DNA of 64,000 bases from Spirochaetia bacterium (GCA_965198005.1 CBDAOI010000002.1:736001-800000), one strand, 5' to 3'. Positions 602 to 59,030 are shown, counted from the stretch's first letter. A program made the numbers and translations. The notes: generated by a model from the sequence alone, not told the origin.

Positions 602-1160
602 CGCTGAACGTTATCATCCCTGATTAGTGCCTGCGTCGGACCGGGTACCGCGCATACCGCGTCCGGGTAACCGCGCCGGGAGACTTGGCCGGGGGGCTGG
701 TGTGCTCCCTGCGCCGCCAGCAGGCGCTTGGTGCACGGCTCCACCCTGGGCTCCGGTGTGGGTCAGCCGGCGCGCCCTGCCAGCTGAGCACACGACGCTG
801 CCTGTGCCGGGTCGCCCACCGCCACCTCCGACCCCTCGCAGGGCAATCGACTGAACTATTCTTGGGGATGAAGGGACGCGGGCAGTGTTCGGTATTTTAT
901 GACAGAGTAAGCAGATAGCTCTACGGAAGGGGGCGCGAGGGAAGCAGATGCCGAACGGGTCCCATCCACGTCACCGAATTTAGGTTTGACAACCGCCGGA
1001 ATAAGCCTTCCAATACTCATTGTGCTGTTAGTCTCGGTGAGTGGCTGGCCGCGGAGCGGAGCGAGGCATGAGGCGATCGTGTGGGAGAGTTCCCACCGGC
1101 TGGCGGGGGCACCTGAATGCCCGCTTGACTGTTTGCCGCGCGTGCGGCAGACTGCGTTCT

Positions 1161-1225
1161 CATGGGCACCGTGATGCGTGACGACACGTCCCAGCGCTCC
1201 CACCGGTTAGCGGTAACGCAGCCGG
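1161..1225 (+). promoter_or_regulatory. Conserved upstream motif of SBP loci, copy 1
   Basis: GATGCGTGACGACACGTCCCAGCGCT...CCGGTTAGCGGTAACGCAGCCGG is similar to minus-strand copies near 26310-26378, 31300-31366 and 43741-43800. Confidence 0.6.
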
Positions 1226-1250
1226 TGCATCCTGCCACCACCACTACCCG

Positions 1251-1267
1251 TTCACCGAGAACTGCTG
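1251..1267 (-). mobile_element. Terminal inverted repeat of the ISNCY-like element
   Basis: Reverse complement CAGCAGTTCTCGGTGAA has one mismatch to the TIR at 31436-31452. Confidence 0.7.
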
Positions 1268-1599
1268 CCCAGCGGGCGGTCGCGGTTGACGGAGCTGGCC
1301 CGGCGGTGGGCTCACCGCTCACCGACCCGCGCGACAGCCGTTCGCTCGGTGCCGGTGCTGAGCGCGGCACCACCGATCCGCGTGGCACACACTCGCCACG
1401 CGTCCGCGCATCGAACGGGCGACCCGTTCGCCCGCAAACTCATACCAGTCCACACGTGCATGCGCAGCGACGTTGCCGGAGCGAGAAGGGGCACGCGTGT
1501 GCGCGACCAAACTCGTAGGCCACAGATGCGCGCTAACCCGTGGCAGCGGCTCGGCGATCGCCGGGCCACCATTCTGTCAGAGGAACCTGTAGCTCAAGA

Positions 1600-1793
1600 G
1601 AGGAGGTGGAAAATGATACTCAAAGAACCGCACGCGCGCGCGGTGTGAGCCCGGCCGAACCCGGTGAGTCACACGCCGCGCGCTTTCAGTGTAATTGACT
1701 CAGGCTGGCTGTCCGCGTTGCGGGCGTCAGAGTAGCCGGGGAGCGACAACTCGCTCCGCAATACTCTGGAGATAACATTTTAAGGAAGACACG
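1600..1793 (+). promoter_or_regulatory. Structured 5' leader, family A, with uORF MILKEPHARAV (1613-1648)
   Basis: AGGAGG SD, 11-codon uORF and several stems; homologous to 43206-43400 (-). Confidence 0.75.
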
Positions 1794-3572
1794 ATGAAAA
1801 ACTTTTTGACAATGACCTTCGCGGTTGTGTTGGTCCTGGTGGTGACCGCAACCGGCCTCTGGGCCGCTGGCGCGGAAGAGGAGCCGGCAGCGGCGATGGA
1901 GACGGAAATGGTGGAGGAAGCTGGACCGCAATACGGTGGGACGATTACCATGATGGACGCATATCTCGGGCGCTTCCCGCCTACAGAGTGGGACCCAGCT
2001 AAGTTTGTCTGGCCGTTAATGGTCTATGTTGAACATTTCGAGCAGCTTCTTGGTGGAGACTGGCAGAATAGGGGGCCACGTGGCACCAATGAGTGGCCGT
2101 TCAATATACGTTCAGGTCCTCCTAATGATTTTCTATCACCTGTTTTAGCTGAAAGCTGGACTACGCCCGATGACACAACCGTTATTTTCAAAATACGTCG
2201 GGGAGTCATGTGGCATGAAGCGCCGGGAGTAATGGCATCAAGGGAGCTGACAGCGGAGGATGTAGCTTATCACTGGACTCGTACTCTAGCGTCAGACAAG
2301 GCCTGGAGCATATATGGTGCAGTTGAGTCGGTAACCGCCACGGATGAGTACACGGTTGAATTCAAGTTGGCCTCTTACACGCCTGATTGGATGCTTCTTA
2401 TAGGAAGGGGCCATTTACCGACGTGGATCGCGAGTCCTCCAGAGCTGGTGGAGGCGGGACCAAGTGACTGGAGGAACCATCGTGGGGTAGGGACAGGCCC
2501 GTTTTTGCTCGATGACTTCGTGGAAGGCACCTCGGTAAGTTACGTAAGGAACGACAATTACTGGCAAACTGAAACCATCGATGGCAAGGAATACGAGATT
2601 CCGTTCATCGACCGCCTGGTTAAAATTCTAAATCCGGATAGAGCTGCCCAGATCGCTGCGTTACGAACAGGGAGGCTGGACCAACTTAATGCAGTTGGCG
2701 CGCAGTACGTCCAGTCGCTACAAGATACAAATCCCGAAATAAAGTTTATTGGGAGACCAGCAGGCGGGTCCTACTTAGTAGGCATGAGGCTAGATACGGC
2801 GCCCTTTGACGATCCGAAGGTGCGGAAAGCAATGAGCATGGCTATAGATCGACAAGGCTTTATTGCCAATATATGGGGTGGTGCGGGAGAGATTTTAAAC
2901 TTTCCGGCACCTGCGAACCTGCCAGAGACTGTCTATACTCCTCTGGAGAAGCTACCGGAATCAATTAGGGGGCAGCTTGAATATAACCCCGAGCGTGCGA
3001 GGCAACTATTAGCCGAGGCGGGACTCGCGGACGGTTTCGAGGCGACTCTGCAAGGATATGCAATAGAGCCTTGGGAAGATATAGCTTCGTTACTGGTAGC
3101 TTTCTGGGCTGATATCGGAGTCGACGTTTCAATCGATTTGATTGAGAAGACTACTATGGATGCCATGTTTACAGCCAAGGAGCATGGGCCGCTTTCAATG
3201 TTTACCGTTGGAGGAGGTGTTGATGCGCTTGGTGTAATACAGGGACGATACATCGAGCCCCTGATATATAATACACCAATGTTTGAGCATCACCCTGAAT
3301 ACGCTGAATTTAGAGAGCGATGGCAGCAGGCATACGATAAAAGGGACCTGGTTGAAAAGTACAAGCTAACCAAGCAGTTGAACCAGGAGGCCTTATCGAC
3401 TGTCGCTTTCGCCCTTTTGCCAACTCCATATGTATACCTAGGTATCTGGCCATGGGTGGAGAACCACCACGGCGAACTCGCTCCAGCGGCGGGGACGGGT
3501 GGTGTAGGCCCGGTTATGGCTCGTGTCTGGATCAACAGCGCCTTGAAGCAACAATTGGTGGGAGGTCAATAG
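1794..3572 (+). CDS. ABC transporter substrate-binding protein, family 5
   Basis: Signal peptide, PQYGG, LAESW, GTGPF, PFDDPKVRKAMSMAIDR, YNPERARQLL. Confidence 0.95.
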   Translation: MKNFLTMTFAVVLVLVVTATGLWAAGAEEEPAAAMETEMVEEAGPQYGGTITMMDAYLGRFPPTEWDPAKFVWPLMVYVEHFEQLLGGDWQNRGPRGTNEWPFNIRSGPPNDFLSPVLAESWTTPDDTTVIFKIRRGVMWHEAPGVMASRELTAEDVAYHWTRTLASDKAWSIYGAVESVTATDEYTVEFKLASYTPDWMLLIGRGHLPTWIASPPELVEAGPSDWRNHRGVGTGPFLLDDFVEGTSVSYVRNDNYWQTETIDGKEYEIPFIDRLVKILNPDRAAQIAALRTGRLDQLNAVGAQYVQSLQDTNPEIKFIGRPAGGSYLVGMRLDTAPFDDPKVRKAMSMAIDRQGFIANIWGGAGEILNFPAPANLPETVYTPLEKLPESIRGQLEYNPERARQLLAEAGLADGFEATLQGYAIEPWEDIASLLVAFWADIGVDVSIDLIEKTTMDAMFTAKEHGPLSMFTVGGGVDALGVIQGRYIEPLIYNTPMFEHHPEYAEFRERWQQAYDKRDLVEKYKLTKQLNQEALSTVAFALLPTPYVYLGIWPWVENHHGELAPAAGTGGVGPVMARVWINSALKQQLVGGQ

Positions 3573-3668
3573 GCAATAGGGAAATAGAGAAATAGTGTGA
3601 GTTAATTCTTCTCTGACAGACGGGGGTGAGGGTAGCTTCTCTCTCCCCCGTATTTTTGGTAGAGAGGG

Positions 3669-4658
3669 ATGCAAGCCTACATAATCAGAAGATTACTCCT
3701 GATTATACCCACTATACTCGTAGCGAGTCTAATAGTGTTCTTCCTTCTTCGCTTTATTCCCGGCGATGTAGTGACCAAGATGGTGGCTTCGCATCCGGTG
3801 GTTGGGGAAGCATTGGACGAGGCGGCTTTACGACAAAGCCTGGGACTGGATGTGCCAATCCCAGTCCAATACGGACGCTGGATAGGAGTTATTCGGGACC
3901 GTCAAGGCTCATTTTCTGGACTTTTACAAGGCAGCCTTGGATCATCCCTATGGCGCCAGCAACCTGTGATTGAGATAATACTCAATAGATGGCCAGTAAC
4001 CTTTGAGCTTTCTATCTTAGGTATGACAATAGCCCTACTAGTAGCCCTACCTATAGGTATCTACTCAGCGATGCGGCCGGACACCATTGGCGACTACATC
4101 GCGCGCAGCTTTGCTATTCTCGCTATCGCTGTACCCGTCTTCTGGCTAGGGACGCTGGTAGTAGTCGTCCCCTCGATTTGGTGGGGTTGGTCTCCGCCGC
4201 TAGAGTTTATCAAGTTCACTGATGACCCGCTGGGAAACCTGGGGCAGTTCATCATTCCGGCTAGTGTCTTGGGCCTGAATATGGCGGGGGCGGTCATGAG
4301 GATGACGCGAACCATGACGCTGGAGGTGCTAAGGCAAGATTACGTAAGGACAGCCTGGGCAAAGGGACTCAAGGAGAGGATGGTAATCCTCCGGCATACT
4401 CTCAAAAACGCCCTAATTCCGGTGGTCACCGTAACGGGAGTTGTGTTTCCTACGGTGGTTGGGGGTTCAGTTGTCACAGAGACGATATTCGGCATGCCCG
4501 GCATAGGTACTTTACTGCTACTGGCCATCAACGATAGAGACTATCCCATAATCTCCGGAGTAATGTTGTTAGTGGCTGGCATTATGGTGCTGACCAATCT
4601 AGTTATTGACCTGTCCTACGGCTTTCTTGACCCCAGGGTTCGGGGTTCGTATGAGTGA
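3669..4658 (+). CDS. dppB: ABC permease DppB/OppB-like
   Basis: YIIRRLL start, PGD, EAA-like DYVRTAWAKGL, LDPR end. Confidence 0.92.
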   Translation: MQAYIIRRLLLIIPTILVASLIVFFLLRFIPGDVVTKMVASHPVVGEALDEAALRQSLGLDVPIPVQYGRWIGVIRDRQGSFSGLLQGSLGSSLWRQQPVIEIILNRWPVTFELSILGMTIALLVALPIGIYSAMRPDTIGDYIARSFAILAIAVPVFWLGTLVVVVPSIWWGWSPPLEFIKFTDDPLGNLGQFIIPASVLGLNMAGAVMRMTRTMTLEVLRQDYVRTAWAKGLKERMVILRHTLKNALIPVVTVTGVVFPTVVGGSVVTETIFGMPGIGTLLLLAINDRDYPIISGVMLLVAGIMVLTNLVIDLSYGFLDPRVRGSYE

Positions 4659-5610
4659 GTTAAATAGGCACTCCCCGTTTCTTATCAGGCTGGCCAAGCA
4701 GAAACCACTGGGTCTTATCAGTGGGATCATAGTGCTTCTCTTTCTTTTTACTGGGATTTTTGCCGATTGGCTGGCTCCTTACGGAATGAACGAAATTCAC
4801 CTTAGTGATGGCCTGCATCCACCATCAACCGAGTATTTCCTCGGTACGGATAACCTGGGGCGGGACATGTTAAGTCGTGTTATCTTTGGGGCTCGTATCT
4901 CGATGATTGTAGGTTTAGCTGCTGGCGCTATAGCTGTACTTATAGCCTTATTGATAGGTGTTCCTTCCGGGTTTATCGGCGGTAAGTTTGATATTGCGGT
5001 GCAGCGGTTCGTTGATGGCTGGATTTCCTTTCCCTCGTTAGTCATTTTCTTAGCCGTTGTCTCTATCGTGGGGGCAGGTATGTTGCAGCTGATTATCGCT
5101 ATAGGGGTGGGACTAGGTATCCTTACTTCAAGGATAATGAGAAGCGCCGTTATCGGCGTTAAGGAGAATATTTATTTTTCGGCGGCGAAGGCGATTGGCA
5201 GTCCACGTAGAAGAATACTCTGGCGGAATGTTCTGCCCAATATTATGGCTCCCGCACTCATCGTATTTTCGACACAGGTGCCCTCTGCAATATTAACTGA
5301 AGCCGGCCTCAGCTTCCTTGGTTTTGGCATCCCCCCACCGCAGCCTAGCTGGGGAGGTATGCTCAGTGGCTCTGGACGCTCTTATATGTTCCTAGCTCCT
5401 TGGATGGCCATATGGCCTGGTCTTGCTATCACTATTGTAGTCTACGGCATCAATATGTTTGGCGATGCGGTCAGAGACCTCTTGGACCCGAAGCTGAGGG
5501 GTGGTCTCGGGGGATATTCCGGAACAACGAGAAAAGCATCCAAGCGTTTGAAAAAGGCCGTACAAACAGGGAAACCGTCCGCGAATCTACGTGGGATACA
5601 ACAACGGTGA
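4651..5610 (+). CDS. dppC: ABC permease DppC/OppC-like
   Basis: [45 protein letters not shown] at 4651 overlaps the dppB stop. Confidence 0.92.
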   Translation: MSELNRHSPFLIRLAKQKPLGLISGIIVLLFLFTGIFADWLAPYGMNEIHLSDGLHPPSTEYFLGTDNLGRDMLSRVIFGARISMIVGLAAGAIAVLIALLIGVPSGFIGGKFDIAVQRFVDGWISFPSLVIFLAVVSIVGAGMLQLIIAIGVGLGILTSRIMRSAVIGVKENIYFSAAKAIGSPRRRILWRNVLPNIMAPALIVFSTQVPSAILTEAGLSFLGFGIPPPQPSWGGMLSGSGRSYMFLAPWMAIWPGLAITIVVYGINMFGDAVRDLLDPKLRGGLGGYSGTTRKASKRLKKAVQTGKPSANLRGIQQR

Positions 5611-22666: not shown

Positions 22667-22895
22667 TCGATAACTCCTATAAACTCCTATCACTCGAGAG
22701 TACGAAGTTTACTGCCGGCCCCTCGCCTACTCTCGCGGTATGCCTGCAATCGCAGGTAACCGAAAAAACGAGGGCGACACCCTGGCGCGTCCCGGCGCGA
22801 CGGCTCGCCGCCCGGGCTCGATCAGCCATACCTGGCTGTCTTGGTCGTGTCTTAGTCGTATCCGGTCTTGGGTTGCATCCCTTCCTCCTTTGGTC
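22667..22895 (-). promoter_or_regulatory. Structured 5' leader, family B, with uORF MQPKTGYD (22852-22878)
   Basis: AAGGAGG SD, uORF and stems shared with 25921-26122 and 30984-31185. Confidence 0.75.
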
Positions 22896-25920: not shown

Positions 25921-26122
25921 CGATAACTCCTATCACTCGAGAGTACGAAGTTCACTGCCGGGCCCTCGCTTACTCTCGAGGTATGCCTGCAATCGCAGGC
26001 GGTCAGAAAGCGAGGGCGACACCCTGGGTCGTCCGGACGCGGCGGCTCGCCGCCCGGGCTCGATCGGCTTGGCTACGGCTTAGTCGTATCCGGTCTTGGG
26101 TTGCATCCCTGCCTCCTTTGGT
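25921..26122 (-). promoter_or_regulatory. Structured 5' leader, family B, with uORF MQPKTGYD (26080-26106)
   Basis: CTCGAGAGTA/TACTCTCGAG, GCCTGC/GCAGGC and GCCCTCGCTT/AAGCGAGGGC pairings. Confidence 0.75.
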
Positions 26123-30983: not shown

Positions 30984-31185
30984 TCGATAACTCCTCTCAC
31001 CCGAGAGTACGAAGTTCACTGCCGGCCCCTCGCCTACTCTCGAGGCATGCCTGCAATCGCAGGCGGTCAGAAAGCGAGGGCGACACCCTGGGTCGTCCCG
31101 ACGCGGCGGCTCGCCGCCCGGGCTCGATCGGCCTGGCTACGGCTTAGTCGTATCCGGTCTTGGGTTGCATCCCTTCCTCCTCTTG
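30984..31185 (-). promoter_or_regulatory. Structured 5' leader, family B, with uORF MQPKTGYD (31144-31170)
   Basis: Near-identical to 25921-26122. Confidence 0.75.
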
Positions 31186-35973: not shown

Positions 35974-37838
35974 GAGTCTGTCGGAGTCATGATCGCGGGG
36001 TTATGAAGTGAGCGAGCCCAAGGGAACGCCGTAGGCGGCCGCCTGGCTCGCCAGCGCTTGGTTGCGCTCAGTCGAGTGGTCAAGACAGGCCCTCCGGGAG
36101 GGATTGAGGCCCTTCGGGAGGGATCGTGACGCCAGCAACACCCTCCAAGGTGGCTCCGGCGCCCGTTCCGGCGCCACAGCTCGACCATCGGGACCCACTG
36201 ACCCCACTTATCCTCCTGCCAGAGCATACATCCGCTTCAGATTCCACGCCGTGCACACCAGACTCCATTCTCCCTCGGCGCCGCGTAACCCGCGCAGATG
36301 AAAGCGGCGGAATCCCAGCACCTCCTTGATCACCCCGAACACCGTCTCCACCGTGGACTTCCGCTTGCTATAGATCGCCTTCCCCTCAGCCGTCTGCAAA
36401 CGATGCAGCATCGCCGTCACCGCATCCGCATCGGCAGGACACTCCGGGGGTGCTTTCAGACGGTCTTCCAGCCGCCGGTTGTGGCGTTCCCGGCTCCCCG
36501 CGATATACGGCTCGATGTCCTGTTCCACGCACCGCTCCACGTTCTCTTTGCTGTGGTACCCGGCATCCGCCACCAGCGCCTCCGGCTTGCCCAGCTCGTC
36601 TGCCACCTTTCCCAACTCGTTCAGCGCCGGCGCCACTTCCTGCTTGTCGTTGGCCGCTTGGCTGACGTGGTTGCCCACCACCATGTGACTGTCCTGCTCC
36701 ACCACCGCTTGCGCGTTGTAGCCCTGTATGAACGCCCCGTTCGCGCCCGGCATGATCCGTGATTCTTCATCCGTGAAGTTCACTTGGTCTTTGTCTTTCG
36801 GTCCTGCTTCAGGCTCCTTCGGCGGTCTCCCTCCCAGCTTCTTGCCGGTCTCCGCTTCCCGTTCCTGCCGTCGCTTCAGCTTCGCTTCGTACTCCGCTTG
36901 CTCCGCCGCATGCCGCTCCTGCGCCCGCTCCTTGATCTTCTCCTGCGCTTCCCGAATCGCTGCCAGCCGCTCCTCCCGACGCTGTAATTCTTCCGGAATG
37001 TCCAGCTCCTGCTGTTCCTGCTCCCCCTCCGCGTCCGCTCGCTCCGCCAGCTCCAGCAGCTTCTCTACCTCCCCCTCCAACTGCCGCTCCAGCTTCGTAG
37101 CATGCCCCCAGCTCATCGCTTTGTGCTTGCTCGCGTTCCCCTGCACCTTCGTCCCATCCAGGCTCACCCGCCCCATCCGCAGCGTCCCCAGCGTCTTCGC
37201 CAGCACCAGAATCTGCTTGAACAGCCCTTGTAACTCCGCCAGAAATCGCTTGCGAAAATTCGCTATCGTATCATGGTCCGGATGCTCACTTCCGGTGATG
37301 TAGCGAAACGCCACCGAATCGTACGTCGCCTGCTCCAGCTTGCGACTGGAAAACACCCCGGTAGCGTAGCCATAAAACAACAGCGCCACCAGCATGGCCG
37401 GATGATACGCCTGCTTGCCGCCGCTACCTCCATACTGGCTCGTTATTTCACCGAGCTCCAGTTGCTCCACTATTTCCACTACAAAGCGCGCCATGTGCTG
37501 CTCCGGTAGCCACTCTTGAATGGACGCCGGCAGCAGCATCGGCGTGTCTCGATCAAGCGCACGAAAATCCTCGGCCATGAACACCTCGTGTGCAGAGTAT
37601 GTGCCTGTAACACTAACCGAAATCAAAAACCATGTCCAGCCATCACCACAACAGTGCCAGCAGGCCACTCCGGGTCCGCGATGGGCACTCTCGACTGATC
37701 CCTGTGGCTATTCCTTCTGATCAAGGGACGGCACAACCCAACGATCCGTGACAGCATGAAATTCACACAGCCGCTACTCGCTCTGGAGACCGCTGCCGTT
37801 CTCCTCCGCCTGCCCCGTACGGTCAATCCGACAGACTC
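35974..37838 (-). mobile_element. IS1182-family element
   Basis: TIR GAGTCTGTCGGA; CTAG on both flanks (35970-35973, 37839-37842). Confidence 0.92.
36208..37578 (-). CDS. IS1182 transposase, intact
   Basis: YHPAML, SSRKLE, PDHDTIANFR, DGTK, YNAQ, ADAGY, RKSTVETVFG. Confidence 0.93.
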   Translation of the reverse strand: MAEDFRALDRDTPMLLPASIQEWLPEQHMARFVVEIVEQLELGEITSQYGGSGGKQAYHPAMLVALLFYGYATGVFSSRKLEQATYDSVAFRYITGSEHPDHDTIANFRKRFLAELQGLFKQILVLAKTLGTLRMGRVSLDGTKVQGNASKHKAMSWGHATKLERQLEGEVEKLLELAERADAEGEQEQQELDIPEELQRREERLAAIREAQEKIKERAQERHAAEQAEYEAKLKRRQEREAETGKKLGGRPPKEPEAGPKDKDQVNFTDEESRIMPGANGAFIQGYNAQAVVEQDSHMVVGNHVSQAANDKQEVAPALNELGKVADELGKPEALVADAGYHSKENVERCVEQDIEPYIAGSRERHNRRLEDRLKAPPECPADADAVTAMLHRLQTAEGKAIYSKRKSTVETVFGVIKEVLGFRRFHLRGLRGAEGEWSLVCTAWNLKRMYALAGG

Positions 37839-39249: not shown

Positions 39250-40182
39250 TCAAACCGACGTGGCGCCGCTGCCAGCGAGAACCCCACCACCACCCCGCAA
39301 CCTTGGATCGAGCAGGTCCCTCACCGCGTCACCGAACATGTTCAGACTGTAGACTGTAATCGTCAGGCAAAGACCAGGCCACAGAGCCAGCCATGGCGCC
39401 GCCTCCATATACTTACGCCCTTCTCGGCTGAGCATACCTCCCCAGCTAGGAAAGTCGACTGGCAAACCGAATCCGAGGAAGCTTAGGGAAGCCTCAGAAA
39501 TAATCACCCCCCCGATGTTGATGCTAAATATGATAATTACGGGAGCCGCAACATTGGGCAGGACATGTCGGATAAAAGTTCTCCATTTTGAGCTGCCAAT
39601 CGCCGCCGCTGCCTGAAAATAGACTTTCTCTTTGACGCCAATAACGGCGCCTCTGACTACTCTTGAGCTGCCGATGCCTCCTGATATCCCCAGGACCAGT
39701 ATTATCTGTGGCAGACCTCGCCCCGCTATGGACATTATCGTTAACAACAGGAGCAGGGCGGGGAAAGCCATCCAGGCATCGACGAATCTCTGCACAGTCA
39801 GGTCCAATTTACCGCCAAAGAATCCTGAAATACCGCCTATCAGGACAGCGATGACAACATTGAGAGCGGTCGCCGCCAAACCGACAGCCAACGAAAGACG
39901 AGCCCCGTGGATAAGGCGGCTCAACAAGTCTCGCCCCACGTAGTCGGTCCCCAGGAGATACCGGGCTGATGAGCCCTGCATCCTGTCTGCCAGGTGTATT
40001 TCCATGTAACGATAAGGAGCCAGAGCATCGGCGAAGATAACCACAAGAATCAATATCAATATCATAATCCCGCTGATTATACCTAGTGGTTTCTCCCTCC
40101 ACAGCCTGATAAAGAAATCAGCCAGCTTGGTACGTCTCTTTGGCTCACCTGCTTGTGACGGTATCCCTGTGACATTACCCAT
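39250..40182 (-). CDS. dppC: ABC permease DppC-like
   Basis: LGTDYVGRD, GARLSL, EASLSFLGFG, PSWGGML. Confidence 0.93.
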   Translation of the reverse strand: MGNVTGIPSQAGEPKRRTKLADFFIRLWREKPLGIISGIMILILILVVIFADALAPYRYMEIHLADRMQGSSARYLLGTDYVGRDLLSRLIHGARLSLAVGLAATALNVVIAVLIGGISGFFGGKLDLTVQRFVDAWMAFPALLLLLTIMSIAGRGLPQIILVLGISGGIGSSRVVRGAVIGVKEKVYFQAAAAIGSSKWRTFIRHVLPNVAAPVIIIFSINIGGVIISEASLSFLGFGLPVDFPSWGGMLSREGRKYMEAAPWLALWPGLCLTITVYSLNMFGDAVRDLLDPRLRGGGGVLAGSGATSV

Positions 40183-40200: not shown

Positions 40201-41157
40201 TTATCTGTAACGGATCGTGGGGTCCAAAAAAGGATAAATCAGGTCGATCATTAGATTGATCCCCATAACCGTGGCGCCGAAGAACAGGTTTATTCCGGAG
40301 ACCACCGGGTAGTCTCTGTTTTCGAGTGCAGTCAGCAGGAGACGACCTATCCCCGGCAGGTTAAATATGTTCTCCATGATCACTGAGCCACCCACCAGAA
40401 TCGGCAGCTGCAGGCCGATCAGGGTCACCACCGGGATGAGCGCATTTTTGACGGCGTGTCTCACAATAACTACCCTCTCCTTGAGACCCTTGGACCAGGC
40501 CGTCCTGATGTAGTCCTGCCGGAGCACCTCCAGCATCATGGTGCGCGTCAACCGCATTGCGCCTGCAGCCGAGGCCGTCCCCAAAATCAGGCTGGGAACG
40601 AGGAACATGCCGAGATTGCTCAGCGGGTCTTCCTGAAAAGGAACCAGCTCCATCGCTGGCGACCAGCCCCACCAGATGGCGGGGTAGATCATGACCATAA
40701 TGCCCAGCCAGAAGTTGGGTGTGGCCAGGCCGATGATGGCAATAGAGCGCCCCGCGTAGTCAGCGGCAGTATCCTGGCGAATCGCCGAGTAGATGCCGAC
40801 GGGCAGGGCTATTACCAGGCCGAGAACGATTGCCATGACACCAAGCTCAACGGTTACTGGCAATCTTTCTAGTATCCTCTCCTCTATCGTATAACCGCCA
40901 ACCAGTGATTCGCCAAGGGTGCCGCGCAGGAAAATATCTCCTAACCAGCGTCCATACTGTACGTAAACAGGCAGGTCTAATCCCAGCCTACGCTCAACAG
41001 CTTCACGGTCAATCCGGCCGGTCGAAGTATCCATCCTCAGCACCATTGCGTCTATTACATCGCCGGGGATGAAGCGGACCCCGAGAAAGACGAGGATGGT
41101 CAAGATAAACAGGGTGGGGATTATCAGCAACAATCGCCTGATGAGATAGACTCTCAC
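40201..41157 (-). CDS. dppB: ABC permease DppB-like
   Basis: YLIRRLL, PGD, DYIRTAWSKGL. Confidence 0.93.
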   Translation of the reverse strand: MRVYLIRRLLLIIPTLFILTILVFLGVRFIPGDVIDAMVLRMDTSTGRIDREAVERRLGLDLPVYVQYGRWLGDIFLRGTLGESLVGGYTIEERILERLPVTVELGVMAIVLGLVIALPVGIYSAIRQDTAADYAGRSIAIIGLATPNFWLGIMVMIYPAIWWGWSPAMELVPFQEDPLSNLGMFLVPSLILGTASAAGAMRLTRTMMLEVLRQDYIRTAWSKGLKERVVIVRHAVKNALIPVVTLIGLQLPILVGGSVIMENIFNLPGIGRLLLTALENRDYPVVSGINLFFGATVMGINLMIDLIYPFLDPTIRYR

Positions 41158-43205: not shown

Positions 43206-43400
43206 CGTTAGTATCCTTGCTTGGATTTTGAGAGTATTGCGGAGCGACTTGCCGCTCCCTGGTTACTCTCGCGCCCGCAACGCGGACGGCCAGTCTGAGT
43301 CGAATTCACTAAGAGCGCGCGGCGTGTGACTCGGCGGGTTCACCCCGGCTCACGCCGCGCGCGCGTGCGGTTCTTTGAGTGTCATTCGAACCTCCTTCTT
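43206..43400 (-). promoter_or_regulatory. Structured 5' leader, family A, with uORF MTLKEPHARAA (43350-43385)
   Basis: Homologous to 1600-1793, with a compensatory base-pair change. Confidence 0.75.
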
Positions 43401-57491: not shown

Positions 57492-57635
57492 TGAAGGCCC
57501 CCGCGTCGGTGGCGATCGCGTTGGGGCGCCGGCGATGCGCTCTGCCTTGATTCCGCCGGCCGAGTGCGTACCGGGTGCGTGACCCGGCTCTACCCGGCTC
57601 CCGGCGCCAACCGCATTCGGGTATGCTCCAGTACC

Positions 57636-59030
57636 ATGTCCAACATCACCCGCCGCCTGGCCGAATTCGCGGCCGGGCTTGGCTTCGACGACATCCCGGG
57701 CGCGGTGGTCGAGCGCGCCAAGGCCCTGGTGCTCGACCAGTTCGGGATCGCGCTGCGCGCCCGCCGCGAAGCCGCGATCGCGCCCAGCCTGGAGCGTGCG
57801 CTGGCGCGGCTCGGCCTGACCGGCGGGACCGCCACGGTGATCGGCGACGCCGTCTCCTACCCGCCGCCGGCCGCGGCGTTGTTCAACGGCACCCTCGGCC
57901 ACTGCCTGGACTTCGACGACACCCACGCGCGCGGCTCGATCCATTCCAGCGCGCCCATCGTGCCGGCGGCGCTGGCGGCTGCCGAGATGAGCGGCGCGGA
58001 CGGGCGCAGCGTCGCCGCCGGGATCATCGCCGGCTACGAGATCCAGATCCGCCTCAGCCTGGCCCTGGGTCCCAGCGCGCACTACGCACGGGGCTTTCAC
58101 CCCACCGCGACCTGCGGGGTGTTCGGGGCCGCGGCCGCGGCCGGCGGTGTGCTCGGGCTGTCCGTGGAGCAGATGGCGCGCGCGTTCGGCCTGTGCGGCT
58201 CGCAGGCGGCCGGATCGATGCAGTTCCTCCATGACGGCGCCTGGAACAAGGCGTACCACACCGGCTACGCCGCGCTGGGCGGCCTGATCGCCGCGACCAT
58301 GGCGGCGGAGGACGTGCGCGGCGCGGCCGCCGCGATTGAAGGCAGGGCGGGATTCCTGCGCGGCTACTCCCCGGACCCGCAGCCGGCACTCGCGGTCGAG
58401 GGGCTGGGGTCGGTGTGGGAAACCCTGCAAATAGCGGTCAAGCCGTATCCTTCCTGCCGCTACGGGCACGCGGCGATGGACGCGCTCATCGCACTGCGCG
58501 CCGAGCACGCGCTGGACGCGGCTGCGATCGAGACGATCGAGGCGGTGGAGATTGGGCTGCCGCGCACCGGCTGGAACATCATCGGCGACCCGGAGAGCGC
58601 CAAGCAGAACCCGCGGAACTACGTGGACGGGCAGTTCTCGATGCCGTTCGTCGCCGCGGTGGCGCTCCGCACCGGCGGTTTGGGCTGGGATGACTACGCG
58701 CGCCATCTCGTTGACCCGGTGACCATGGCGCTGTGCCGGCGCGTCCGGACCGTCGTGGATCCCGCGGTCGAGGCCGCCTACCCGGCGCACATGGGCGGCT
58801 CCGCGCGGGTGGCGGTTAGCGGGCGGAAGCTGGACCAGGTCGTGATCGTAGCCCGCGGCGAACCGGAGAACTTTCTCAGCCGGGCCGAGCTGCGGCAGAA
58901 GTTCGACGCGCTGGTCGAGCCGTACCTGGAGCCGGACCGGCGTACGCGTCTGGCCGCCGCCGCGCTCACGCTGGAGCAGTGCTCCGCACTCTCCGCGCTC
59001 CTGGCGCTGACCCGGCCGGCCGGCCCGTGA
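57636..59030 (+). CDS. MmgE/PrpD family protein
   Basis: NGTLGHCLDFDDTH, GFHPTAT, KPYPSCRYGH, QFSMPF. Confidence 0.93.
   Translation: MSNITRRLAEFAAGLGFDDIPGAVVERAKALVLDQFGIALRARREAAIAPSLERALARLGLTGGTATVIGDAVSYPPPAAALFNGTLGHCLDFDDTHARGSIHSSAPIVPAALAAAEMSGADGRSVAAGIIAGYEIQIRLSLALGPSAHYARGFHPTATCGVFGAAAAAGGVLGLSVEQMARAFGLCGSQAAGSMQFLHDGAWNKAYHTGYAALGGLIAATMAAEDVRGAAAAIEGRAGFLRGYSPDPQPALAVEGLGSVWETLQIAVKPYPSCRYGHAAMDALIALRAEHALDAAAIETIEAVEIGLPRTGWNIIGDPESAKQNPRNYVDGQFSMPFVAAVALRTGGLGWDDYARHLVDPVTMALCRRVRTVVDPAVEAAYPAHMGGSARVAVSGRKLDQVVIVARGEPENFLSRAELRQKFDALVEPYLEPDRRTRLAAAALTLEQCSALSALLALTRPAGP

Follow-up and report, generated by a model that had tools for sequence, protein, structure and literature searches.

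Several described bacterial systems resemble the locus reported here in one respect or another. In the tnaC-tnaA leader of Escherichia coli, control is Rho-dependent and a ribosome stalls at the end of a 24-codon upstream open reading frame (uORF), while in the ermC, cat and cmlA leaders a second hairpin hides the ribosome-binding site (RBS) of the regulated gene. SAM-II and preQ1-II are riboswitches built as H-type pseudoknots adjoining the RBS, and the ‘upstream homology box’ (UHB) and OspE-F families of Borrelia combine a conserved upstream region and signal peptide with divergent mature proteins, reshuffled by recombination. Against this background we analysed a stretch of 64,000 nucleotides (nt) from a Spirochaetia bacterium (GCA_965198005.1, CBDAOI010000002.1:736001-800000), henceforth the window, in which positions 1600-1793 hold a control region of about 170 bases, consisting of a tiny reading frame and a folded RNA upstream of nutrient-binding-protein genes. 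The genome (4.89 Mb in 4 contigs, 66% GC, 90% complete) is that of an uncultured sponge symbiont, in which one shared leader appears to steer many uptake systems in a hitherto undescribed manner. We read the element as one copy of a genus-specific, amplified 5′ leader of operons for ATP-binding cassette (ABC) transporters with a substrate-binding protein (SBP) of the DppA/OppA type, acting in cis as a translation-sensing RNA, a reading on which we are evenly divided.

The leader is most like the uORF-driven RNA switches (i.e., tnaC, erm/cat and the amino-acid attenuators), yet it lacks what defines each of them, be it a codon run, a terminator, masking of the RBS or an evident rut tract; the class of mechanism is known, and the architecture and the copy number (about 85 per genome) are new. 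With tnaC, in which a last-sense proline is important, it shares a short uORF led by a Shine-Dalgarno sequence (SD), the prospect that what becomes of the message downstream would depend on how long the ribosome stays at the end of the uORF, and a genome that encodes Rho. It differs in having 6 or 11 codons instead of 24, a proline directly followed by a stop in only 22 of 118 copies, a stop codon inside a GC stem, no obvious rut tract and its many copies. The likeness to ermC, cat and cmlA lies in a short leader peptide and in alternative hairpins picked by the leader ribosome (here by prediction), whereas the conserved core of our leader does not include the RBS of the SBP gene, for which folding predicts unchanged accessibility. 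In amino-acid attenuators such as trp, his and pheL the 3′ end of the uORF likewise overlaps the first of two competing stems (see PMC3082878), but our leader has neither a regulatory codon run nor a U-tract terminator. The pseudoknot topology directly upstream of the RBS recalls SAM-II and preQ1-II; here, by contrast, there is no Rfam match (E ≤ 10) and no plausible common ligand, and hairpins are inserted in both loops. By analogy, the nearest described parallel for the shuffling of leader cassettes would be the Borrelia UHB and OspE-F families, in which a spirochaete also places a conserved upstream region and signal peptide on reshuffled divergent proteins (going by titles in the reference list of PMC10016077). 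In the present case the proteins are chromosomal ABC-transporter SBPs without a lipobox, a uORF and a structured RNA are present, and the copies are far more numerous. In the literature we found no mention of the peptide MILKEP and no such leader among reports of uORF or Rho control of SBP or ABC transporter genes, and among the papers found on sponge spirochaetes, including passages of PMC11656744, nothing on such leaders turned up.

Leader copies, context and distribution

When the leader (1600-1793) was used as a BLAST query against its own 4.9-Mb genome, we obtained 87 high-scoring segment pairs, 75 of which span at least 100 nt, and a covariance model built from 65 copies gave 85 matches. 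An earlier reading of the window made from the sequence alone (henceforth the sequence-only reading) had placed the leader in front of two divergent SBPs. A check of the window sequence located all the features it listed in both copies, but two is an undercount against the 75-85 copies in the genome. We found that 70 of the 75 copies directly precede an open reading frame (ORF) with the family’s signal peptide, all in one orientation, and that 62 of these ORFs are at least 500 amino acids (aa) long. The conserved block takes in the signal peptide as well, reaching roughly codon 45 of the SBP, and is continuous with the coding sequence. Given this uniform orientation and continuity, we rejected a dispersed repeat of the kind of miniature inverted-repeat transposable elements or repetitive extragenic palindromes.

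Nearly all copies precede genes for family-5 (DppA/OppA-type) SBPs. A hidden Markov model (HMM) of the family detected 153 SBP-like ORFs in the genome, 73 of which have the leader within 450 nt upstream, and 133 scored matches to Pfam SBP_bac_5 (PF00496) lie above the cut-off. Since the leader stands before roughly half of about 150 family-5 SBP genes, the signal it would respond to may control a large share of the symbiont’s nutrient uptake. The expansion of family-5 SBPs in this genome is in itself extraordinary, with several signal-peptide subfamilies that each have their own type of leader.

The leader is far better conserved than the proteins it precedes, as the sequence-only reading had held. 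The two copies in the window, taken with their signal peptides, are 86% identical over 371 aligned columns, while the two SBPs share 36% protein identity over residues 61-300 and 24% over residues 301-592; genome-wide, the median identity is 87% for leaders (nucleotide) against 44-53% for SBP bodies (protein). A 25-nt core spanning the uORF and the first stem occurs exactly twice in the window and in none of 100 shuffles.

We refer to these leaders as family A, of which eight genomes of a single genus together contain no fewer than 268 copies. The covariance model detected 64, 43, 35, 33, 5, 2 and 1 copies in the seven genomes other than our own, and no copy in three further genomes of the genus (81-95% complete) or in 13 genomes of the sister genus, in which BLAST likewise found none; nor did BLAST find a leader in 17 genomes from other families of the order. 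Only 1 locus was found in the JGI metagenome collection. Public records with the core are labelled ‘MAG: Spirochaetia bacterium’ (MAG: metagenome-assembled genome) or are short contigs, three in number, in sponge-derived bins, and the sequencing runs that contain the locus include libraries labelled sponge metagenome. These several hundred paralogous copies form a natural set for dissecting how a uORF is coupled to an RNA.

The uORF and its predicted alternative stems

We compared the uORF across 118 copies from our genome and its relatives; as these copies are related and exchange sequence, the counts that follow are not independent events. A GGAGG-type SD is kept across the set (G at 1603 in 114 copies, at 1606 in 113) and, as GGAGGUG, is stronger than the SD of the SBP gene. 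The start codon is ATG in 112 copies, GTG in 2, TTG and CTG in 1 each and missing in 2 (TGG, AGG), so that 115 of 118 begin with ATG, GTG or TTG. In codons 3-6 (L-K-E-P) the first and second positions are invariant save for two E-to-Q cells, and all third-position changes are synonymous: CTC 87/CTG 31 (position 1621), AAA 117/AAG 1, GAA 89/GAG 29 (1627) and CCG 103/CCT 7/CCC 6/CCA 2 (1630). Over codons 2-6, third positions account for 79 of the 97 variant cells, 78 of them synonymous. The proline at codon 6 (Pro6) is invariant. Codon 7 is free: it is a stop (TAG) in 22 copies and otherwise encodes His, Tyr, Trp, Glu, Leu or Thr, followed by four more codons. Codons 8-11 and the stop that ends them are frozen at all three positions, even in copies that already stop at codon 7, because they make up the 5′ arm of the first stem (P1). 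The fact that these early-stop copies keep codons 8-11 frozen while codons 1-6 vary synonymously suggests conservation of the RNA in the former and of the peptide in the latter.

Considering this, the uORF is very probably translated, as its three-base periodicity is otherwise hard to explain. Both the frame and residues 1-6 show amino-acid conservation, which extends to a divergent copy from the metagenome (L087). This copy starts with GTG, has an in-frame 6-nt deletion and reads MTRKDPRAA*, thus keeping K-(D/E)-P and a stop inside P1; another copy (L061) is frameshifted. Judged from the alignment, LKEP appears to show the nascent-chain conservation that marks arrest peptides (SecM, MifM, TnaC and SpeFL). 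The sequence-only reading had seen no codon run, and indeed the peptide is MILKEP(H/Y/stop)ARAA across the 118 copies, with three alanine codons that the leader can do without, as a stop precedes them in 22 of 118. Two other ideas about the uORF were discarded. Inspection by eye of the uORF/P1 junction for a slippery site or bypass turned up neither a slippery heptamer nor conservation of the alternative GTG frame; pairing of the uORF’s AUACUC with a downstream GAGAGUA was rejected because the leucine wobble base (C87/G31) would disrupt it.

Pairing was assessed in 65 distinct family-A copies (3218 cells), in which 93.5% of cells are standard pairs (see Table 1 for the stems and their positions). 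The 12 core pairs of P1 are nearly invariant and 95-100% paired; P2 is paired in 96-98% of cells with no double changes; P3 is 98.5% paired; and P4 is 97.9% paired, with C/U changes opposite G (UG 41/CG 23; CG 48/UG 13). As the stems of family A hardly vary, the case for P1 and P2 rests on thermodynamics and invariance and not on covariation. Both window leaders are more stable than dinucleotide shuffles (z = -2.15 for the first and -3.62 for the second, whose minimum free energy (MFE) is -78.6 kcal/mol). In MFE folds, P2 was present in 9 of 66 copies when the RNA was free but in 51 of 66 when the nucleotides that a ribosome with Pro6 in its P site would cover were made unavailable. The mutually exclusive stems proposed by the sequence-only reading are thus borne out by fold prediction, with P1 and P2 predicted to exclude one another once a ribosome sits on the uORF; in the models it is also possible that they coexist as a pseudoknot.

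Between these nearly frozen arms, other parts of the leader change freely. No part of the leader is more variable than the linker at 1684-1695, in which both sequence and length differ between copies. Of the 74 own copies, 12 lack the P1-loop mini-hairpin and 23 contain a palindromic insert of 19 nt (GUUGGCGGGCGCGCCCGC), a duplication of P4. A few copies also carry a 22-nt insert within the mini-hairpin of the P1 loop (e.g., G000:C4:396160 and loci L070 and L072). The leader, with its new conserved mini-peptide and its structured RNA, matches no Rfam family: searching Rfam 15 yielded nothing anywhere in the window when gathering thresholds were applied and, with lax filters, nothing at E ≤ 10 in 1540-1830, in agreement with the sequence-only reading, which had recognised no known riboswitch.

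Table 1 Features of the first family-A leader and of related loci in the window
Feature	Position	Strand	Remark
SD of uORF (GAGGAGGTGG)	1600-1609 (GAGGAGG = 1600-1606)	+	6 nt upstream of ATG
uORF, MILKEPHARAV*	1613-1648 (ATG 1613, TGA 1646-1648)	+
P1, GC-rich 12-bp stem	1634-1685; core 1636-1647 with 1672-1683	+	core arms GCGCGCGG(T/C)GTG and CACGCCGCGCGC; uORF stop codon in 5′ arm
P1 loop contents	mini-hairpin 1651-1664, then GAGUCA	+	MFE fold; mini-hairpin optional
P2	GAGUCA 1666-1671 with UGACUC 1696-1701	+	alternative to P1 or pseudoknot with P1
P3	CUGGC 1705-1709 with GCC(A/G)G 1735-1739	+	encloses P4, crosses P5
P4, hairpin GUCCGC-GUU-GCGGGC	1711-1725	+
P5	1728-1734 with 1762-1768	+	encloses P6; 3′ module common to sister leader families
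P6, GGAGCG/CGCTCC	1740-1746 with 1751-1757	+	inside P5
First SBP gene, 592 aa	1794-3572	+	PF00496, SBP_bac_5 (Pfam 9.3e-65); carries the family’s conserved signal peptide
Two permease genes after first SBP	3669-4658, 4606-5610	+
Second family-A leader	43226-43400; uORF 43385-43350 (MTLKEPHARAA*); 3′ module 43310-43227	-
Second SBP gene, 617 aa	41352-43205	-	PF00496
Permease genes after second SBP	40201-41157, 39250-40182	-
Three non-A leaders	31000-31087, 25936-26023, 22693-22781	-	93-102 bits with model R2

The 3′ module and the sister leaders

To the extent that sequence comparison can tell, the 3′ module of the leader (P3 to P5) covaries across leader families. Among the 80 SBP-like ORFs without a family-A leader, 26 carry arms of the GAGAGUA...UACUCUC type upstream, and in the 22 full-length genes among these 26 a distance of 14-34 nt separates the module from the predicted SBP start. 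The motif search behind these numbers demanded at least 6 of 7 complementary positions, which biases it to paired arms, although single mismatches were admitted. The P5 arms of these non-A modules read GAGAGUA/UACUCUC in 8 cases, GAGAGUG/CACUCUC in 7, GAGAGCA/UGCUCUC in 5 and GGGAGUA/UACUCCC in 3, with mismatched arms in 2, i.e., compensatory variants at three different pairs. P3 is formed by the bases immediately 3′ of GAGAGUA together with a complementary stretch 5′ of the P4 hairpin. This helix is CUGGC/GCCAG in family A and, at the same place, CCCUCGC/GCGAGGG in the non-A leaders, where the upstream complement was found in 26 of 26 and variants include CCUUCGC/GCGAAGG and CCCUCGUC/GACGAGGG. 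In an alignment of 24 non-A modules, 92.8% of cells are paired and 20 cells in 6 pairs are double-changed, a number reached by none of 500 shuffles and compared with a maximum of 7 in slid controls. The loop letters GGCA in the module are also conserved across families. A compensatory change at the base of the 3′ stem, which the sequence-only reading had pointed out between the two window copies, is real but rare within family A, as this pair is CG in 2 and GC in 53 of 65 copies (8 unpaired, 2 gaps). Since P3 and P5 cross, the module would act as a second switch or fold into an H-type pseudoknot whose two loops each carry a hairpin.

The relationship between family A and the other leaders escaped BLAST, which found no similarity between their modules, and emerged from motif and model searches only. 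Specifically, a model built from non-A modules alone (R2) gave its best scores to the three non-A leaders in the window (Table 1) and its next best to the two family-A copies, at the exact coordinates of their modules, with 24.2 bits (E = 0.001) for the second leader and 17.9 bits (E = 0.024) for the first (1688-1771), these E-values being rough. A weaker R2 match at 57616-57695 on the minus strand (17.0 bits, E = 0.039) may be a further, more divergent leader. We found 34 copies of the non-A module in the leader’s own genome and 38, 14, 4 and 2 in other genomes of the genus, but 0 in 6 genomes of the sister genus and 0 in 48 sampled genomes of other families.

The sister leaders follow the layout of family A in that an SD-led mini-uORF precedes a P3-P4-P5 module at the same distance from the SBP start, and differ from it in that their peptides are unrelated, the P1/P2 unit is absent and some have poly-C/poly-Pro tracts. 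Examples from our own genome, behind a strong SD, read M.PKTGYD*, MKSPYD* and MQILTVYG*. Of the 14 listed, 13 lie 143-212 nt upstream of the SBP start and one lies 444 nt upstream; by inspection of their sequences, they too differ synonymously. What makes the 3′ pseudoknot-type module noteworthy is that it is common to leader families with different uORFs, a feature that the sequence-only reading had missed.

Proposed mechanism and rival explanations

The translation-sensing mechanism that we favour would work as follows. A very strong SD would load ribosomes onto the tiny uORF, with its conserved product M-I-L-K-E-P. The 5′ arm of P1 begins 3 nt past the proline codon, and a ribosome with that codon in its P site, or stopped one or five codons later, would cover this arm; with P1 blocked, the loop sequence GAGUCA would pair with the downstream UGACUC to form P2, while without a ribosome P1 would win. 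P2 would abut the pseudoknot-type module P3-P4-P5(-P6), whose end is 14-34 nt away from the start codon of the SBP gene, and the state of P1/P2 would be relayed to this module and from there to SBP translation or, via Rho or RNase Y, to the fate of the transcript. Because the 3′ arm of P2 lies 3 nt from the 5′ arm of P3, and the module ends within the region covered by a 30S subunit, P1/P2 may set pseudoknot formation or the access of Rho or RNase Y. The genome encodes both factors (Rho at 698 bits, RNase Y at 658 bits). A C-terminal proline slows termination (PMC3834316, citing Hayes et al. 2002), which by analogy would fit a pause at Pro6 in the 22 copies where a stop follows it; in the other copies such a pause is conjecture.

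Several results weigh against this mechanism. Beyond the conserved core, a variable, A-rich linker contains the SBP’s RBS, whose mean unpaired probability is 0.489 in free and 0.487 in masked leaders (69 copies; 2 up, 2 down). Masking of the RBS by the switch, as in erm/cat, is therefore not seen in these partition functions, which cover nested structures and leave pseudoknots outside the model. An intrinsic terminator after P1 is rejected as well, in line with the sequence-only reading, which had noted the absence of a U-tract: the 6 nt that follow P1 contain 1-4 T in 74 copies and never five or more, with a single T in 13 and a G or A at the start in 11. No clear C-rich, G-poor (rut-like) tract was found either, the sequence after the uORF stop being a GC stem. 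Covariation, on which the sequence-only reading had proposed to test the leader, is almost nil within family A (12 double-changed cells of 3218, in 6 pairs), and a mutual-information scan with average product correction over 98 distinct copies found correlation between neighbouring columns only. The whole 3′ module is missing in at least 4 own copies and in 4 loci of relatives, and one copy (in genome G008) retains the RNA and precedes an intact SBP gene although its SD and AUG have been lost. Contigs from four RNA-labelled libraries (four studies) cover 1177-4000 and bridge both uORF to P1 and leader to SBP start, but they are contigs without ends or strand, and DNA carry-over is possible; gaps in these libraries (900-1113 in three of four runs) and differences in depth were left out of the evidence. 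The earlier proposal of a novel ribosome-mediated attenuator is accordingly upheld as regards its novelty against Rfam, its conserved frame and the predicted exchange of stems, but neither a terminator nor a change in RBS accessibility was found to go with it.

A further group of results against the favoured mechanism concerns exchange among paralogs. Similarity between leaders is nearly uncorrelated with similarity between SBP bodies (Spearman 0.11; 1326 pairs, 52 paralogs), and in 20 of 23 pairs whose leaders are at least 95% identical the bodies are less than 60% identical. The orthologous loci L057:3600-4320, from a related species, and G000:C4:686280-687000, one of the own-genome paralogs, have bodies that are 99% identical in protein and 99.6% at four-fold sites, whereas their 5′ modules are only about 80% identical and of different subtypes. 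The stretch of low identity runs from about 100 nt upstream of the uORF to the conserved DPTTGK codons, and the flanks upstream of it are about 90% identical. Such a pattern points to either a recent exchange of the body between species or an exchange of the 5′ cassette between paralogs. With leader and body uncoupled and 5′ modules swapped, the uniformity of the leaders in part reflects concerted evolution or gene conversion. This weakens the argument from conservation to function for single nucleotides, but it accounts neither for the three-base periodicity of synonymous changes nor for arms that stay frozen next to hypervariable linkers, nor for the compensatory pairs. All the hallmarks of an upstream-homology-box family (i.e., a shared upstream region and signal peptide, divergent mature proteins, and reassortment) were found; on these comparisons, the leader and signal peptide are an exchangeable cassette reassorted by recombination, and a clear case of a regulatory and signal-peptide cassette that is both held uniform and reshuffled.

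Among the alternatives, the one that fares best, although we think it rather unlikely, is a constitutive cassette for expression or stability, in which the SD and mini-ORF would hold a ribosome at the 5′ part and the stems would shield the SBP message from RNase Y, giving high output without switching, with uniformity maintained by recombination. It would account for an RBS whose predicted accessibility a uORF ribosome leaves unaffected, for the lack of a downstream terminator, for the swapping of the 5′ module and signal peptide as a unit and for a uORF SD that exceeds that of the SBP in strength. It is also consistent with the set of nucleases, since searches of this 90% complete genome detected RNase Y but neither RNase E/G nor RNase J. 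A plain ribosome pad, however, needs no specific hexapeptide, yet codons 3-6 vary only synonymously; the stop inside P1 and the invariant GAGUCA/UGACUC look like parts of a switch; and the G008 copy either works without its uORF or is decaying.

A stronger version of the translation-sensing mechanism would make MILKEP a new minimal arrest or pause peptide, whose ribosome, halted at Pro6 against the P1 stem, would flip two pseudoknots in relay, first P1/P2 and then P3/P5, and so control upwards of 80 ABC uptake operons at once, with sister families setting other mini-peptides on the same 3′ module. We consider this unlikely. If it were true, a leader-defined regulon would couple the whole nutrient scavenging of the symbiont to the state of its translation apparatus.

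Slightly less probable still is that the leader serves as a platform for a factor acting in trans (be it protein, small RNA or, in the manner of a riboswitch, a global small metabolite) which would bind the two pseudoknot-type units and co-regulate at least 85 operons, leaving the uORF as an accessory. Stems and loops are near-invariant, which is unusual for a purely structural RNA, the 3′ module is kept across families with its stem covariation and GGCA loop letters, its 14-34 nt spacing to the SBP start is fixed, and the G008 copy retains the RNA without a uORF. Against such a platform, no Rfam aptamer matched at E ≤ 10, the SBPs are too divergent to share a transported ligand, no candidate factor emerged, and the peptide-level constraint on the uORF would be left unexplained.

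We judge it very unlikely that the conserved block matters at the level of DNA alone, as a region of homology (leader plus signal peptide) that promotes the shuffling of SBP paralogs in the style of the Borrelia box and involves no special RNA mechanism. Module replacement with sharp breakpoints at the DPTTGK codons, the uncoupled histories of leader and body, the further dispersed repeats upstream and the existence of Borrelia families of a like kind (per titles cited in PMC10016077) would all suit it, but recombination alone gives no synonymous pattern with a period of 3 nt, and yields neither the compensatory pairs of P3-P5 nor hypervariable linkers between frozen arms, and all copies share the same orientation and distance to the SBP gene. 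Finally, a classical transcription attenuator, with P1 as an intrinsic terminator prevented by a closely trailing ribosome, is the most improbable reading. In its favour, P1 is a 12-bp GC stem with 1-4 T behind it and the uORF stop in its 5′ arm; against it, no copy reaches five T in the 6 nt that follow, the linker there is the leader’s most variable part, there is no regulatory codon run, and hairpin-plus-T-run sites exist elsewhere in the genome (e.g., 874-891).

The last-named site belongs to a terminator-like hairpin and T-run at 874-900 on the plus strand, 3′ of the upstream gene, which means that U-tract terminator-like sites do exist in this high-GC genome; none was found in 1000-4000 on the same strand. 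A possible promoter noticed by eye (TTGACA at 986-991, with TCCAAT 17 nt on) does not satisfy promoter-scan criteria. The closest solved relatives of both window SBPs are HbpA/DppA-type binders, and just 3′ of the second SBP operon lies a gene for a DDE transposase (DDE_Tnp_1, DUF772; 36208-37668, minus strand). Two more repeated modules lie upstream of the first leader. One, at 1100-1267 (core 1162-1240), contains a conserved frame resembling a small ORF (MRDDTSQRSHRLAVTQPVHP...) with a variable tail that continues into poly-Pro/poly-C in some copies; it has 49 BLAST matches in the genome, 17 of which have a family-A leader within 1500 nt downstream. The other, an intergenic module at 1316-1480, has at least 14 further copies with 72-90% identity, several of them directly upstream of other family-A leaders.

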